In this document: positions 1,592 to 16,275 of the stretch, one piece after another | How the letters are laid out: every line of letters begins with the position of its first letter | Numbering within the stretch: the stretch's first letter is position 1 | Origin: Candidatus Harrisonbacteria bacterium CG10_big_fil_rev_8_21_14_0_10_44_23 | Lineage (GTDB): Bacteria; Patescibacteriota; Minisyncoccia; UBA6257; 1-14-0-10-44-23 | Direction: 5' to 3' | Assembly (NCBI GenBank): GCA_002773475.1 | Contig: PFBB01000023.1 | Coordinates: forward strand, 1-44,360 | DNA: 44,360 bases | Notes under the pieces: model-generated | What the model saw: only the letters and a program-made list of their open reading frames with translations | Database searches by the model: none | What the model was told of the DNA's origin: nothing | Program-made: the position numbers and the translations under genes

Positions 1592-2161
1592 GTGCATAAA
1601 GAAGAAAGCAACATACATGATCTTGAGTTGGTAAAGAGAGCGATAGCCGATCCAAATGAATTTGAGAAAGTGGTGGAGAAATATTGGGGTCCGTTGGCTA
1701 GATTTGTGCGCAGAATTTCTTCATCTAGCAACGCCGACATTGAAGATGTCCTTCAGGATAGCTTTGTGAAGGCTTACCTAAACCTCAACAGTTTTGATGA
1801 AAGCTATAAATTGTCTACTTGGCTGTATCAAATTGTTCGAAACAGCACGATAGATGCTTTTAGAAAAAACAAAAGTCATTTTGCGATCTCCCAAATTGAG
1901 GATAAGGAAATCGAAGAATTGTTTGCTTCCTCGTTAGACATGGAGAAGGATAGTGATTTAAAGCGAGACGTGACCAAGTTAAGAGTCCTAATTGCTCAAC
2001 TCTCTACCAAATATCAGGAAGTAATGGTTTTGAAGTTTTTGGAGCATAAGAGCTATGATGAAATTATGGACATTGTAAAAAAACCTAAAGGAACGGTGGC
2101 GGCTTTGATCAATCGTGGTCGAAAGATTTTAAAGAACAGATTCGAGGAAGAAAATATATAA
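1592..2161 (+). CDS. ECF-type sigma-70 family RNA polymerase sigma factor
   Basis: Region 2 (LQDSFVKAYLNLNSFDESYKLSTWLYQIVRNSTIDAFRK) and region 4 HTH (YQEVMVLKFLEHKSYDEIMDIVKKPKGTVAALINRGRKIL). GTG start. Confidence 0.85.
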   Translation: MHKEESNIHDLELVKRAIADPNEFEKVVEKYWGPLARFVRRISSSSNADIEDVLQDSFVKAYLNLNSFDESYKLSTWLYQIVRNSTIDAFRKNKSHFAISQIEDKEIEELFASSLDMEKDSDLKRDVTKLRVLIAQLSTKYQEVMVLKFLEHKSYDEIMDIVKKPKGTVAALINRGRKILKNRFEEENI

Positions 2162-2951: not shown

Positions 2952-3458
2952 ATGAAAAATAAAGTTTTAGTTATAGGTTTAACCTCCGCTCTCGCATTAG
3001 CTTCCGTGGCTGGCGCCGCTCAAGCTTTTGGAGGACCAGAAGGTTTAAGAGATGAAAGGCCACAAGAGGTAATTCGCTCATTAGCGGATAGATTTGATCT
3101 GGATGAGTCTCAATTGCAAGATTTCTTTGAGCTAATGCGGGAAAAACACCAGGCTCAGATGGAAGAGCGCCAACAGGAACGTTTAGACCAAGCGGTTGAC
3201 GGCGGTTTGATAACCGAAGAGCAGAGGCAATTGCTTGAGGACAGACACGAGGCACAAAAGGTGCAGATGGACGAAATTATGCAGATAGAAGACCCAGAAG
3301 AGCGTCGCGCGGCGATAGAAGCACATCACGACGATATGCGGGCTTGGATGGAAGAAAATGAAATTGATCTAGGCTTGGGAGAGGGACGATTTGGCATGGG
3401 TGCTTCGATGGGTGGGGGAATGCATCGCGCAGAGGGACGAAGAGGATTTGGGCAATAA
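2952..3458 (+). CDS. secreted helical protein with LTXXQ-like motifs (CpxP/Spy-like?) and a Gly/Met-rich tail
   Basis: Signal peptide ending in AQA. LDESQ and ITEEQ motifs lie in Glu/Gln/Arg-rich helices. The tail is GMGASMGGGMH. Confidence 0.5.
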   Translation: MKNKVLVIGLTSALALASVAGAAQAFGGPEGLRDERPQEVIRSLADRFDLDESQLQDFFELMREKHQAQMEERQQERLDQAVDGGLITEEQRQLLEDRHEAQKVQMDEIMQIEDPEERRAAIEAHHDDMRAWMEENEIDLGLGEGRFGMGASMGGGMHRAEGRRGFGQ

Positions 3459-8515: not shown

Positions 8516-9265
8516 ATGAAACTAACAAAAAAGCTTTTTAAAGCACGTGGGCAGAGAATGGTTGGATTGATTTTATCGGCGGCACTTTTGGTCGTACTTT
8601 TACCAATGATCCAATTGGTTATGGGTTTTACTGGGCCAGCATCTAGCCCACCAGATGGTAATGGAGTACTTAATGAGTTGAGCGGAAATTTAAGCGTATC
8701 AAATGTGCGCATGGTAGATGTGGCGAGTCCAGTAGATGACAATGATGCGGCTAATAAGGCTTACGTTGATGCACAGGTTGGAGGGTCGGGATCCTTGGTA
8801 ACCTTATTTGGAGTTAGCACCAACGCTCCAAGTGCGACTCAGGCTTTCCGATCTGGAGACTCTGCACCACCTTGCTTAAGAGGTTATTACAATGGTGGAG
8901 GTAGTTGTCAGGGAACAATCAGCACTGGCACCGCAGCTGGATCGGGAACAATGGAATGTAGTTCCTTGGGTACAGGATGGACGGAGCTGTATGCCGGATA
9001 TGGGCCGCTTAACCAAATCTTTGCTTGGTATGCTCCCGGAAGCCCAAACGGTTGGCCACCGCTAAATGCGGAGGGTGATTTTGAATCAGAAAATGCCTCA
9101 CCTTCAATGGCGGTTGGCTTAACTGACTCTATTTGCTCAACAGTTTCTTTTGCCTTCGTTAGAGACACTCGATACACGTCAGCTCAGTTTGGAGATACAG
9201 CTAGCTACATTTCTGCTTGCACAGCAAACGGTGACTGCAATACCTGTAGGGTTTGCACAAAATAA
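8516..9265 (+). CDS. secreted/anchored Cys-rich protein with a tail-fibre-like DxNDAANKAYVD motif
   Basis: N-terminal TM/signal segment, the motif VDDNDAANKAYVDAQV, and a C-terminal half with many Cys residues. Confidence 0.5.
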   Translation: MKLTKKLFKARGQRMVGLILSAALLVVLLPMIQLVMGFTGPASSPPDGNGVLNELSGNLSVSNVRMVDVASPVDDNDAANKAYVDAQVGGSGSLVTLFGVSTNAPSATQAFRSGDSAPPCLRGYYNGGGSCQGTISTGTAAGSGTMECSSLGTGWTELYAGYGPLNQIFAWYAPGSPNGWPPLNAEGDFESENASPSMAVGLTDSICSTVSFAFVRDTRYTSAQFGDTASYISACTANGDCNTCRVCTK

Positions 9266-13299: not shown

Positions 13300-14172
13300 A
13301 TGGCAGATTATTATAAGATTTTAGGGTTGGAAAAAAATGCTTCGGAGGAAGAGATTAAGAAGGCCTATCGAAAGCTAGCTCATCAACACCACCCCGATAA
13401 AGGAGGAGGGGATACAAAGAAGTTTAAAGAGCTAAACGAGGCGTACCAAGTTTTATCCAACAAAGAAAAAAGAAGCCAATACGATAAGTTCGGCCGAGTT
13501 TTTGATGGCCAGCCCGGGCAGAATGGACCCGGGGGATTTAATTTTAACCAAGGATTTAATGGATTTGAGGGATTTGATTTTGGCAATTTTGGAGACATCG
13601 GCGACATTTTAGAGACATTTTTTGGTGGGCGGGGATTTAGAGCTAGAGCCAAAGGCGCCGATCTGCAGGTGGTGGTGCAAGTCAGCTTGGAAGAGGCTTT
13701 TGATGGCACAACTAAGAAAATCCAATACAAAACCTATACTGGTGATGCTGGAGAAGCAAGCATTGAGATACCGGCTGGAGTAGAGCCTGGGCATTTAATC
13801 AAGATTGCAGGTGCGGGAGAGAGGCTTAAAGATAAGCCGTCGGGCGATCTTTATGTGCAAGTCCAAGTATTACCTCATGAAAAATTTGTTCGTAGAGGGG
13901 CAGACCTAATTTATCGAAAGGAGCTGAATTTATTGGATGCGCTCTTGGGCAAGAAGCTAACTATTGAGACAATATCTGGAGAGAAGGTGGAGGTGGAGAT
14001 TCCGATGGGAGCCGATCTGTCCCAGCCACTGAAAATACCCGGGAGGGGAATGCCAAGACTGGGAAGATTTGGCAGAGGGGATTTGTATGTGCGCCTACAG
14101 CCTCGAACTCCGAAAAAGCTTAGCCGAAAAGCCAAAAAAATCTTAAAAGATCTAGAGGGGGAGATAAATTGA
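13300..14172 (+). CDS. dnaJ: DnaJ-family co-chaperone lacking the Cys-rich zinc-finger domain (class B/CbpA-like)
   Basis: J domain with HPD (YYKILGL...[10 protein letters not shown]), a G/F-rich linker and C-terminal substrate-binding domains. No CxxCxGxG repeats. Confidence 0.85.
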
Positions 14173-14303
14173 CCTGCCCTCTAGGGTAGATAGAATGGGT
14201 AAATAAATGCTCCATACGGGTATGGAGCATTTATTTGCAAGCGCTAGAAGTTGGCGGAGTTGTCAAATTTGGGTAAAATCATTATACTGTTGCCATTGCA
14301 GAC

Positions 14304-14354
14304 GCCCCCATAGCTTAGTGGTAAATCCGCCAGCTGGTGGACTTTTAAGCTGAT
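14304..14354 (+). pseudogene. decayed 5' partial copy of tRNA-Lys (positions about 1-47)
   Basis: 14304-14325 is identical to the first 22 nt of the tRNA at 14618. CTTTTAAGC and TGAT are also retained, but the region between them and the 5' arm is replaced by the hairpin TCCGCCAGCTGGTGGA. There is no T-arm or 3' acceptor. Confidence 0.6.
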
Positions 14355-14607
14355 GATCTACGTTTACGTTTTACGCAATCAATCTAGGAGGAAAATCTAT
14401 GTAGGACATACGTCTGATCTAGATAAAAGATTGGCTAGACATAATGGAGATTTACCAAGTAAGGCTACATCGTTTACTGCCAAAAATGACGGATTTTGGA
14501 GACTGATATACAAAGAGGAATATGGTGATAGGCGGTCGGCGAGGCGACGAGAAAAGCAATTAAAATCTGCGCAGGGTAGAAAGTTTATTCATAATCTTTT
14601 ATCCTAG
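14353..14607 (+). CDS. small GIY-YIG nuclease-superfamily protein (84 aa)
   Basis: MIYVYVLRN...KIYVGHTSDLDKRLARHNG shows GIY and YIG-type motifs plus a conserved Arg. The ATG overlaps the end of the tRNA-like fragment and there is no SD. Confidence 0.8.
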   Translation: MIYVYVLRNQSRRKIYVGHTSDLDKRLARHNGDLPSKATSFTAKNDGFWRLIYKEEYGDRRSARRREKQLKSAQGRKFIHNLLS

Positions 14608-14617
14608 AACAGTACAA

Positions 14618-14688
14618 GCCCCCATAGCTTAGTGGTAAAGCAACGGCCTTTTAAGCCGCTGATCATGGTTCGATTCCATGTGGGGGCA
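14618..14688 (+). tRNA. tRNA-Lys (anticodon TTT)
   Basis: Acceptor GCCCCCA/TGGGGGC, anticodon loop CTTTTAA, T-arm CATGG-TTCGATT-CCATG. 71 nt with no encoded CCA. Confidence 0.9.
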
Positions 14689-14736
14689 CAAAATAAATAC
14701 GCGACTGTGGAGTGTTTTTGTTTTGTGCTGCATAAG

Positions 14737-14765
14737 CGAAGCGATTACTCTAGCTTCGATTTTTA
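14737..14765 (+). terminator. hairpin plus T-run after tRNA-Lys
   Basis: CGAAGC-(10 nt)-GCTTCG followed by ATTTTTA. Confidence 0.5.
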
Positions 14766-14801
14766 CCCGTCCGTAGCTTGTAGAGTGAAGGCGGGCCTTG
14801 T

Positions 14802-14810
14802 GGGGGGGGG
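14802..14810. repeat. G9 homopolymer tract in a non-coding G+C-rich stretch
   Basis: Nine consecutive G residues read directly. Line 14761-14820 has 36/60 G+C. Confidence 0.9.
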
Positions 14811-14970
14811 CACTTCGACTCGTTTCACTCGCTCAGTGTAAACGCAGTTCGACAAGCTCAAAGCAAAGTCTAAATTCTAAAATTCAAACTAAAAGCTAAC
14901 AGCTCAAAGCTGAAGTTGGTACCATTGCATTAATTTTTGATTTTTTGTAAGATTTGGAAGTTGTATATAT

Positions 14971-16275
14971 ATGGATAAGACGCAGAGAAAAAGTCTCTCA
15001 CTAATAATCGTCGTTTTGCTGATAAGCATTCTGGGCGGGTTTTTTATTTATCCAGGCAATGGAGTATCAGACAATCTAAGGCCTTGGCATCTTGGACTAG
15101 ACTTAGTTGGAGGAGCGCACCTTGTCTATGAGGTGGATATGTCGGATGTGGACTCCGCTGATCAGGCTTATGTTTTGAGCGGACTTAGAGATGTCGTTGA
15201 AGGAAGAGTAAACGCCTTTGGGGTAAGTGAGCCTCAGGTTTTAACCGCGGAAGCGGGAGATTCAAAGCGTATCATTGTTGAGCTGGCGGGTATTAAAGAT
15301 ATCTCAGCAGCGATTCAAAGGATCGGACAAACCCCAAATTTGGTGTTTGCGGAAGTCTCAGATGAGCTACCGACACAAGAGGCTACGGTAGACGAAAACG
15401 GGAAGGTGGACTTGCAAGCTAGTATTGCAGACGCTCTTCAACAAAAATTTAAAGATACTAAGCTAACTGGAAGATATGTGGAGAGTGCGCAACTTGGGTT
15501 TGATAACATAAGCGGCCAGCCTTTGGTTTATTTGCAATTTAATGATGAGGGAGCGGCCCTTTTTGAAGAGATTACTTCTAGAAATGTTGGAAAGCCGCTA
15601 GCGATTATTTTAGACGATCGATTGGTTAATTCGCCCACTGTCCAACAAACTATCTCGGGCGGACAGGCTCAGGTGACTGGCTTGGGGTCAATCAATGAAG
15701 CACGTACTTTAGTGGAGCAGTTAAACGCCGGTGCGTTACCAGCGCCAATAACTTTAATCAGTCAGCAAACAGTTGGGGCCTCTCTTGGAGCCGATAGCTT
15801 ACAAAGCATCATCTGGGCTGGATTGATTGGAGCTTTGCTAGTTATCTTGTTTATGCTGATTTATTACCGAAAGTTAGGAATCTTCGCTTCGATTGCTTTG
15901 ATAATTTACATAGTTTTACTTTTGGGATTGTTTAAACTATTTTTCACCTTAACCTTAGCCGGAATTGCTGGAATCGTTTTGTCTATTGGAATGGCGATTG
16001 ATGCCAATATTCTTATTTTCGAGAGAACTAAAGAGGAGATTAAGTCTGGGAGCCCTCAATCGGTTGCGATATCGGAAGGATTTAAGCGGGCTTGGCCATC
16101 TATCCGAGACTCTAACATTACAACGATTATTACCTCTTTGGTACTCTACAACCTAACATCAAGCTTTATCAGGGGGTTTGCCCTTTCTCTGCTATTGGGA
16201 GTTTTGGTGAGTATGTTTACCGCGATTACAATTACCCGCAGTTTATTAACCGTATTTTATCGAAAACGAGCATAA
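14971..16275 (+). CDS. secD: protein translocase subunit SecD
   Basis: LGLDLVGGAHLVYEVD, a periplasmic domain and the C-terminal six-TM region. It is adjacent to secF. Confidence 0.9.
   Translation: MDKTQRKSLSLIIVVLLISILGGFFIYPGNGVSDNLRPWHLGLDLVGGAHLVYEVDMSDVDSADQAYVLSGLRDVVEGRVNAFGVSEPQVLTAEAGDSKRIIVELAGIKDISAAIQRIGQTPNLVFAEVSDELPTQEATVDENGKVDLQASIADALQQKFKDTKLTGRYVESAQLGFDNISGQPLVYLQFNDEGAALFEEITSRNVGKPLAIILDDRLVNSPTVQQTISGGQAQVTGLGSINEARTLVEQLNAGALPAPITLISQQTVGASLGADSLQSIIWAGLIGALLVILFMLIYYRKLGIFASIALIIYIVLLLGLFKLFFTLTLAGIAGIVLSIGMAIDANILIFERTKEEIKSGSPQSVAISEGFKRAWPSIRDSNITTIITSLVLYNLTSSFIRGFALSLLLGVLVSMFTAITITRSLLTVFYRKRA

Follow-up and report, generated by a model that had tools for sequence, protein, structure and literature searches.

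Positions 14260-14688 of the window, by which we mean the whole 44,360-nucleotide (nt) stretch analysed here (contig PFBB01000023.1 of Candidatus Harrisonbacteria bacterium CG10_big_fil_rev_8_21_14_0_10_44_23), hold an intact tRNA-Lys(UUU) gene preceded by a broken copy of its own 5' part, plugged by a short hairpin, and by an open reading frame (ORF) for an 84-amino-acid (aa) GIY-YIG nuclease. We consider it probable that this arrangement is one copy of a widespread family of selfish cassettes nesting in tRNA genes, and we infer that this lineage acquired its cassette at the resident tRNA-Lys(UUU) locus, since the same locus is empty in most family relatives. None of the closest known systems unites the three features seen here, namely a nuclease reduced to the bare Slx1-type domain, a conserved hairpin whose place in the cloverleaf is fixed, and a broken tRNA copy within which a working tRNA is nested. 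In the literature that could be searched, we found no description of such a layout. The window forms contig C28 of the assembly G000 (528 kb, 35 contigs, 94% complete), whose relatives are metagenome-assembled genomes (MAGs) of the Patescibacteria, or candidate phyla radiation (CPR).

Architecture of the tRNA-Lys locus and its nuclease gene

A sequence-only reading of this DNA had described an upstream duplicate of the first 22 nt of tRNA-Lys, of its anticodon loop and of the TGAT of its variable loop, with 8 nt exchanged for a 16-nt hairpin, and had placed the ATG of the GIY-YIG ORF at the break point and the complete tRNA 10 nt past the stop codon; all of this was confirmed (Table 1). The similarity of the fragment to the tRNA is above chance, with a local alignment score of 49 compared to a mean of 18 and a maximum of 25 in shuffled sequences. 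The 22-nt copy comprises the 5' acceptor strand and the D arm through GGTAAA, and it is also identical to the first 22 nt of tRNA-Lys(CUU) on contig C7, the only other tRNA-Lys gene found in the assembly, which carries no cassette. The hairpin forms in the RNA fold as a 6-bp stem, including one G.U pair that can pair on the sense strand only, and a tetraloop. Behind it, 14342-14350 reads CTTTTAAGC followed by TGAT, the complete segment to 14358 being CTTTTAAGC and then TGATGATC, and the start codon of the GIY-YIG gene is built from this segment.

The protein matches the Pfam family PF01541 (GIY-YIG) over residues 1-76 (E 7.8e-17), and Y5, Y16, G18, R26, H30, N31, K37, T42, W49, E55, R66, E67, L70, K71, G75 and R76 are invariant in 29 homologs, among which strong purifying selection was evident. 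Residues Y5, Y16, R26 and H30 align with Y6, Y17, R27 and H31 of I-TevI, and E67 is by its motif position taken by us to correspond to I-TevI E75; judged from its sequence, the catalytic motif is intact. The ORF is identical in three independent environmental contigs. An AlphaFold2 model with a predicted local distance difference test (pLDDT) score of 95.4 has the topology beta-beta-alpha-beta-alpha, and the best sequence match in the PDB is 1zg2, the UPF0213 protein BH0048 (E 3e-3). Foldseek likewise placed 1zg2 first, followed by Slx1 (6seh, 6sei, 7cq3, 4xm5) and At-HIGLE (7wme), a plant Holliday-junction resolvase which is thus among the nearest solved folds, with I-TevI (1ln0) and UvrC (1yd6) behind, while TIGR01453 matches residues 4-40 only, at 24 bits against a cut-off of 56. 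In size, fold, catalytic motif and lack of an accessory domain the protein is like the stand-alone Slx1-like/UPF0213 proteins YhbQ, BH0048 and EF2693 (PMC1564403; PDB 1zg2, 1ywl). By both sequence and model it is assigned to this minimal, structure-specific Slx1/UPF0213 lineage (PMC1564403) and not to the Seg/I-TevI-type homing endonucleases, because it has no C-terminal DNA-binding domain, one of their defining features.

The closest parallel among homing endonucleases is SegB of phage T4, together with other free-standing GIY-YIG enzymes (PMC2330249), where a non-intronic GIY-YIG gene also lies among tRNA genes, occurs in only some relatives and is proposed to move through recombination in homologous flanking sequence. 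In contrast, SegB exceeds 200 aa and carries a DNA-binding domain, its locus has neither the hairpin module nor the broken target-gene copy seen in the window, and cleavage, which has been demonstrated for SegB, is putative for the window protein. Integrase-type islands and prophages resemble the window in that they use a tRNA gene as their target and regenerate it intact, with part of the tRNA repeated at the far end of the element. The window differs from these in having no integrase or att-site logic, in a unit of only about 300 bp, in a duplicated 5' part with a hairpin substitution and in a repeat whose extent varies between loci; the 84-aa gene is the sole ORF between the repeats, with no tyrosine or serine recombinase gene there. 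Nor is the locus a group I intron tRNA, in which exons are joined into one tRNA, as the tRNA is complete and uninterrupted and no group I intron (Intron_gpI) was found in 14100-14950 even at E<=10; one tRNA of that kind exists elsewhere in G000, on contig C23.

Table 1. Features of the tRNA-Lys locus in the window, with the genes on either side.
Feature	Position	Strand	Description
dnaJ-like ORF	13300-14172		upstream neighbour; ends just before the terminator-like hairpin
Terminator-like hairpin of the dnaJ-like gene	14201-14236	+	perfect 17-nt inverted repeat
Sigma-70-like promoter	14260-14288	+	TTGTCA-17 nt-TATACT; promoter scan, 10/12 matches; just 5' of the fragment
5' fragment, segment A	14304-14325	+	exact copy of tRNA-Lys nt 1-22 (14618-14639)
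Hairpin module	14326-14341	+	TCCGCCAGCTGGTGGA, TCCGCC-AGCT-GGTGGA; replaces the 8 nt GCAACGGC, tRNA nt 24-31
C' segment	14342-14358	+	anticodon-loop copy (CTTTTAA) plus about 10 nt, ending in the variable-loop region
GIY-YIG nuclease ORF	14353-14607	+	84 aa, minimal, Slx1/UPF0213 type; ATG at 14353, stop 14605-14607
Spacer	14608-14617	+	10 nt from the GIY-YIG stop codon to tRNA nt 1
tRNA-Lys(UUU)	14618-14688	+	intact; ARAGORN; Rfam tRNA model 74.1 bits
secD	14971-16275		downstream neighbour; the flanking genes are dnaJ-like and secD/secF

The absence of a separate promoter between fragment and ORF, as noted earlier, agrees with the promoter scan, which called nothing promoter-like from the fragment to tRNA-Lys. 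The sigma-70-like site is presumably the resident tRNA-Lys promoter, now driving fragment, GIY-YIG ORF and tRNA, and the terminator-like hairpin behind the dnaJ-like gene is the left border of this transcription unit.

The sequence-only reading had also proposed that the fragment forms a tRNA-like leader which ribonuclease P (RNase P) cuts to release a leaderless GIY-YIG mRNA, and the position of the start codon at the end of the tRNA-derived fragment, with no Shine-Dalgarno (SD) motif, is what this would predict. RNase P needs a T arm and a 3' acceptor strand, however, and the fragment has neither of these and gives zero matches to the Rfam tRNA model even at E<=10. A stable leader fold beyond the hairpin was considered and rejected, the fold being no more stable than shuffles (z = -1.07). 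There is indeed no SD motif, but the argument is moot, since such motifs are found upstream of 12% of the ORFs of G000 compared to 17% inside ORFs; they are thus not enriched, the genome does not use them, and their absence is not special to the GIY-YIG ORF. Furthermore, the distance from hairpin to ATG ranges from 11 to about 40 nt in relatives, which together with the disuse of SD motifs also led us to reject the hairpin as an SD mimic. We regard release of a leaderless mRNA by RNase P as very improbable and the least credible of the explanations weighed here.

Downstream of the tRNA (14690-14970) a decayed 3' fragment was looked for and rejected, as the best local alignment did not differ from shuffles (p = 0.28). 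Two echoes of the tRNA, CCGTAGCTT and CCTTGTGGGGG, lie there at 14771-14779 and 14796-14806 in an order that would suit a 3' fragment, without reaching significance by the same comparison.

Empty and occupied loci in related genomes

The position of tRNA-Lys(UUU) beside secD is conserved among relatives, and the dnaJ..tRNA-Lys..secD locus carries neither GIY-YIG gene nor fragment in G006, the closest relative (67% SecD identity), and in G004, G009, G026 and G015. The comparison of empty with occupied sites that had been called for thus excludes universal conservation, the contrast holding at family or order distance. Other relatives show further states of the locus: G001 has hairpin-laden 5' fragments without a GIY-YIG gene, the tRNA of G020 is flanked by both 5' and 3' hairpin-laden fragments, again without the gene, and G025 carries a different GIY-YIG lineage with hairpins between acceptor stem and D arm. 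The patchy presence at a conserved locus that characterises free-standing homing endonucleases is therefore seen here as well, with G000 and G025 occupied and the five genomes above empty.

Six environmental contigs were 99.9-100% identical to the window over the aligned part. Those that reach the site (L041-L043 and L046) are occupied and identical, and the other two (L044, L045) stop before or at the hairpin. Three of the six end in or beside palindromes (14229, 14325, 14337); these ends were considered as an empty allele and rejected, and are read as assembly breaks. Between dnaJ and tRNA-Lys, foreign-looking high-GC ORFs are inserted in G006 and G009 (L048, L052), and the orientation of tRNA-Lys relative to secD varies among relatives; the dnaJ-tRNA-Lys intergenic region seems to be a rearrangement hot spot.

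Homologs of the window protein were found in 49 of 61 related genomes, in up to 7 copies per genome, and in 12 there were none. At 13 of the 30 best homolog loci from these relatives a tRNA gene lies within 70 nt, always on the same strand, compared to about 0.4 loci estimated from tRNA density; the GIY-YIG gene precedes the tRNA at 11 of them and follows it at 2. GIY-YIG genes beside partial tRNA copies, which the earlier reading had suggested searching for, recur widely in these genomes. Cassettes at Lys, Asn, Ala, Met, Ser and Gln tRNAs share one architecture, consisting of a 5' fragment that starts at tRNA nt 1, the GIY-YIG gene, the intact tRNA and often a 3' fragment reaching the tRNA 3' end, and the broken tRNA copies bear GC hairpins. 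The position of the hairpin differs between tRNA types: all three tRNA-Asn cases have the same 16-mer in the D loop, one of them (L004) also in the T loop of its 3' fragment, while in the tRNA-Ala case L007 it replaces the entire anticodon arm. Decay is seen in L008, where the GIY-YIG gene contains a stop codon, GIY-less hairpin-plugged fragments are common, and tandem arrays occur in L075, L137 and L276. The protein family is also found next to tRNAs with group I introns (L013 and contig C23). In one further relative (L012, G017:C1) a mini GIY-YIG homolog lies inside a 16S rRNA gene; the Rfam small-subunit rRNA (SSU) match spans 1815 nt compared to a model of 1533 positions, implying an insert of about 280 nt.

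The hairpin unit and what it argues for

The upstream copy had previously been called decayed. This description does not apply, since more than 100 species carry the hairpin as a conserved module, always at one position of the tRNA. The pattern TCCGNCAGCTGNNGGACTNTTAA is present in 7 of 401 genomes of the order, from 6 families, and a slightly looser pattern for the junction of hairpin and anticodon loop recovered at least 119 stretches from a species-representative collection, where about 1 was estimated by chance. The hosts comprise many CPR lineages as well as MAGs labelled Gammaproteobacteria, Clostridia and Bdellovibrionales. In the following, neighbourhoods were counted in 80 listed stretches out of the at least 119, hairpin composition in 117 copies and fragment end points in 140 distinct copies. 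An intact tRNA-Lys lies no more than 800 nt away in 70 of the 80 stretches, in all cases on the same strand, and 50 of them contain a GIY-YIG homolog with 44-66% identity to the window protein.

The hairpin has the consensus TCCG[CT]C-RGCY-G[AG]CGGA at a fixed position of tRNA-Lys. At stem positions 5 and 12, 96 copies have a C-G pair, 19 a T-A pair and 2 no pair, and positions 7-10 form a variable RGCY loop; given this compensatory switch and the variable loop, the hairpin is maintained as a structure in which a tetraloop caps 6 bp of stem. The idea of a strict DNA palindrome or restriction-like site was rejected, as positions 7 and 10 do not covary (A-T 59, A.C 32, G.T 24). The left junction coincides with the D-arm end (GGTAGA or GGTAAA) in about 113 of the 117 copies, although nothing in the search pattern demanded this. 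The flanks derived from the tRNA agree with the local tRNA next to them, down to the anticodon (CTT or TTT). Fragments break off at varying points, 59% of the copies at nt 42-49 in the variable region, and a second cluster of end points lies in the T loop. Fragments complete at the 5' end always lie upstream of the intact tRNA (63 cases), and those complete at the 3' end always downstream of it (19 cases).

These features allow for an RNA-guided system, in which the 5' tRNA fragment and the hairpin would be transcribed as a guide-plus-scaffold RNA directing the GIY-YIG domain to matching tRNA genes. The fragment begins at tRNA nt 1 just 3' of the promoter-like site, the hairpin covaries as an RNA or single-stranded structure would, and its G.U pair forms on the sense strand only. 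On the other hand, a single-domain protein of 84 aa is far below the size of any RNA-guided nuclease known to us, 3' fragments with the same hairpin lie downstream of the tRNA without a guide-like 5' end, the position of the hairpin varies between tRNA types, and direct evidence is absent; we hold such guidance to be very improbable.

The anticodon-loop copy behind the hairpin also raises the possibility of a host function, namely that the small GIY-YIG protein has a part in repair or in the metabolism of RNA or tRNA, is co-expressed with tRNA-Lys, and has the fragment as a regulatory leader (an attenuator, or a processing or stability signal). Co-transcription from one promoter is apparent, CUUUUAA after the hairpin resembles a weak terminator, and a terminator-like copy of the same hairpin type, with a T run after it, ends another gene of G000 at C16:17131. 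In addition, a prokaryotic Slx1-like domain is fused to a TrmH-type tRNA methylase, for which a role in RNA was suggested (Dunin-Horkawicz et al., 2006; PMC1564403), and the purifying selection on the protein would be expected of a host gene. However, copies of the CTT type have the U tract interrupted (CUCUUAA), so a terminator function is not conserved; window-type leaders thus do not conform to the GC hairpin with conserved U tract of an intrinsic terminator or attenuator, and the terminator scan did not call the window hairpin as one. The gene is also missing at the same locus in most relatives and entirely from the 12 genomes mentioned above, its copy number varies from 0 to 7, pseudogenised and gene-less copies exist, and the broken copies that flank the intact tRNA on either side are scars of DNA rearrangement rather than a designed leader. 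A host function is in our view improbable, if less so than RNA guidance.

A third alternative is that the GC hairpins are themselves the primary mobile agent, as tiny palindromes of the repetitive extragenic palindromic (REP) or miniature inverted-repeat transposable element (MITE) kind that insert into single-stranded parts of tRNA genes, so that only cells with a tandem duplicate survive, and that the GIY-YIG protein is a trans-acting enzyme, as the REP-associated tyrosine transposase (RAYT) is for REP, or a passenger. Hairpins of the form TCCG[CT]C-N2-6-G..GGA are over-represented in G000, with 6 occurrences compared to 0.6 in shuffles, and apart from the terminator-like copy on C16, a uvrC-like gene (C10, about 2078-2107, minus strand) contains two of the TCCGCC..GGCGGA type in frame, in the part that encodes its GIY-YIG motif, where they add about 10 residues (RRRRIRPGRR) between GVYFF and IYIG. 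The GIY-less fragments speak in the same direction, including those at both tRNA-Lys genes of G331, a genome with only distant GIY-YIG paralogs, as do the additional hairpin modules in the D loop, the T loop and the gap between acceptor stem and D arm. Moreover, the duplication in GIY-less copies also takes in sequence 5' of the tRNA, from a few nt up to more than 31, and in this resembles a local tandem duplication. Like the REP sequences and bacterial interspersed mosaic elements (BIME) with their RAYT, the Rickettsia palindromic elements and the mitochondrial GC clusters, these are short GC-rich palindromes dispersed in an AT-rich genome, in-frame insertions included; the window-type hairpins differ by their length of 15-16 nt, by being tied to tRNA fragments and a GIY-YIG gene instead of an HUH or tyrosine transposase gene, and in that their mobility is putative.

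What tells against mobile hairpins is first their position, which is invariant per tRNA type across phyla and better fits a single founding event, and second the co-occurrence of GIY-YIG subfamily and hairpin site far above chance. We know of no transposition mechanism for a 16-nt hairpin. Finally, an unbiased search for any insert of 12-24 nt at the tRNA-Lys site in 300 other genomes of the phylum, with the window copy included, gave four insertions, of which three were the canonical hairpin (the window and two in G649) and one a different hairpin (G433). Taken together, hairpins as the primary agent seem unlikely to us, although they come closer to a plausible account than any of the other alternatives above.

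The exception in G433 (L275, G433:C19, about 1500-1540) is a 15-nt hairpin, TCAGGCTTAGCCTGA, placed after GGTAGA and before CTCTTAAGC; the tRNA-Lys site can hence take other hairpins. Positions 1-246 of the G649 locus (L276, G649:C19) consist of tRNA-Lys units in tandem, which bear the hairpin and are complete at both ends; ARAGORN reports them as odd tRNAs whose anticodon has 4 bases. In L002, L089 and L131 a second GC palindrome (CCTGCCCGCCGGCAGGCAGG or similar) separates acceptor strand and D arm in the 5' fragment, and several other loci have T-loop hairpins ending in ..GGCGGACAGGC.

Origin, spread and implications of the cassette

Comparison of the tRNA genes separates local from travelling parts. 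The working tRNA of the window is identical at 65-67 of 72 positions to that of family relatives with empty loci, compared to 52 of 72 for the tRNA beside the closest GIY-YIG homolog, and being of the local (family) type it led us to reject, for this locus, a cassette that imports its own tRNA. The 17 nt after the hairpin (CTTTTAAGCTGATGATC), in contrast, agree with a common foreign tRNA-Lys type (..GCTGATGGTC, matched stretch CTTTTAAGCTGATGGTC) at 16 of 17 positions without a gap, whereas alignment with the local tRNA needs a 3-nt gap; the foreign type fits at least as well, which hints that hairpin, 17-nt stretch and ORF may have arrived together. We infer that the tRNA-derived parts are local and that what travels would be the hairpin with the nuclease gene, possibly joined by the 17 nt behind the hairpin.

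The earlier idea of a homing-endonuclease-like element that inserted into the tRNA gene and regenerated it accordingly survives in part. The layout fits an element lodged in the tRNA-Lys gene with one working copy left, but the nuclease is of the Slx1/UPF0213 type without a DNA-binding domain, and the working tRNA is local and not imported. A comparable outcome is known from the mobile ORFs (mORFs) of fungal mitochondria, in Allomyces atp6 and in Glomus atp6, atp9, cox2 and nad3 (PMC3630166), where an endonuclease ORF sits in a host gene, part of which is duplicated, with one functional copy and a displaced fragment beside it. In mORFs the end of the functional gene is foreign and the native end displaced, whereas in the window the working tRNA is local and only the 17 nt after the hairpin are possibly foreign; the window further differs in that the target is an RNA gene, the nuclease is minimal and the unit contains a conserved hairpin.

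If a selfish cassette has indeed settled here, synthesis of tRNA-Lys(UUU) probably requires transcription through the fragment and the nuclease gene, because the only promoter-like site lies upstream of the fragment. Such co-transcription would give the nuclease gene free expression and make loss of the promoter costly, this being the sole tRNA-Lys(UUU) gene found in the assembly. RNase P cutting at the 5' end of the tRNA would separate mRNA from tRNA, and translation of the GIY-YIG gene would begin without an SD motif, like that of other genes of G000.

Spread between genomes would most likely proceed by homologous recombination in the conserved tRNA segments beside the hairpin, the D arm and the anticodon loop. 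A donor consisting of tRNA part, hairpin, tRNA part and cargo would undergo a single crossover with the resident tRNA, which to the left of the hairpin should give fragment-cargo-tRNA and to the right tRNA-cargo-3' fragment; both of these predicted layouts are observed in relatives. Unequal crossing-over could then produce the tandem arrays of L075, L137 and L276.

Whether the nuclease takes part in this is a separate matter. We offer only tentatively, as something more doubtful than likely, that it promotes this recombination as a structure-specific enzyme which cuts the hairpin or the DNA of a folded tRNA gene. More speculative still, and in our estimate quite unlikely, is that it recognises the shape of DNA and not its sequence: the non-template strand of a heavily transcribed tRNA gene might fold as a cloverleaf mimicking a four-way (Holliday-like) junction, and cuts at single-stranded connectors and loops might seed the recombination that installs hairpin and nuclease cassette. 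The breakpoints fit such a reading, because the hairpin replaces nt 24-31, beside the connector of D and anticodon arms, and because the fragment ends cluster at nt 42-49 and the D and T loops as well as nt 8-9 contain further hairpins. If so, the cassettes would represent an unrecognised, structure-targeted class of bacterial mobile DNA specialised in tRNA and rRNA genes.

Several points weigh against the interpretation as a selfish cassette. The catalytic domain takes up all 84 residues, leaving no DNA-binding domain, and to our knowledge neither a cleavage activity nor a target is known for this protein. The occupied allele keeps an intact and presumably cleavable tRNA, so that homing by cutting the empty site would hit its own host copy, and the interpretation does not account for the role of the hairpin. 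No empty allele at strain or genus level was found among the six environmental contigs, which had been recovered by exact look-ups of the GIY-YIG and DnaJ proteins, and a metagenome scan with the DnaJ-like protein returned no close relatives, the best matches being 42-55% identical. Lastly, horizontal transfer is suggested but falls short of proof. In a tree of the GIY-YIG proteins, Moranbacteria and Sungbacteria cluster, the five members from the order of the window are dispersed, and there are at least 12 switches of anticodon type. The phylogeny is weakly resolved, with 87 columns and only 3 starred branches, and its use as proof of horizontal transfer was rejected for this reason.

Annotations in thousands of bacterial genomes include stand-alone UPF0213/Slx1-like GIY-YIG proteins, for which the literature that could be searched describes neither a function nor a genomic habit. 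A selfish cassette at the window locus would give these proteins a biological context, their gene being that of a tiny element which lives in tRNA transcription units and, among relatives, inside rRNA genes too. A further implication would be that an essential RNA gene can be occupied without a self-splicing intron, one copy being broken and plugged with a hairpin while a working copy stands alongside. In practical terms, the cassettes create tRNA pseudo-fragments, contig breaks and tandem repeats, which confuse annotation and assembly of the ultra-small CPR genomes, and the conserved hairpin of 16 nt and its 84-aa nuclease are together compact enough for direct tests at the bench.

Three other sites of the G000 assembly call for mention. 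On contig C11 a 40-nt duplicate of the 5' end of tRNA-Ser (8817-8856) flanks an N run and was rejected as a scaffold-gap artefact and not a cassette. On C21 (L273, record positions 3087-3267) the 5' end of tRNA-Arg(GCG) is copied exactly over 19 nt, 106 nt upstream, and is followed by a CCCC...GGGG hairpin with no ORF before the tRNA, which amounts to a GIY-less version of the layout. On C23 (L272, about 1517-2134) lies an initiator-like tRNA with a C1-A72 mismatch and a CAU anticodon, missed by ARAGORN, that is apparently split in its anticodon loop by a group I intron (RF00028, 50.5 bits, 1548-1724). The second GIY-YIG gene of the genome (1883-2130 of the same contig), with a product 35% identical to the window protein, begins 85 nt past the 3' end of this intron-bearing tRNA.

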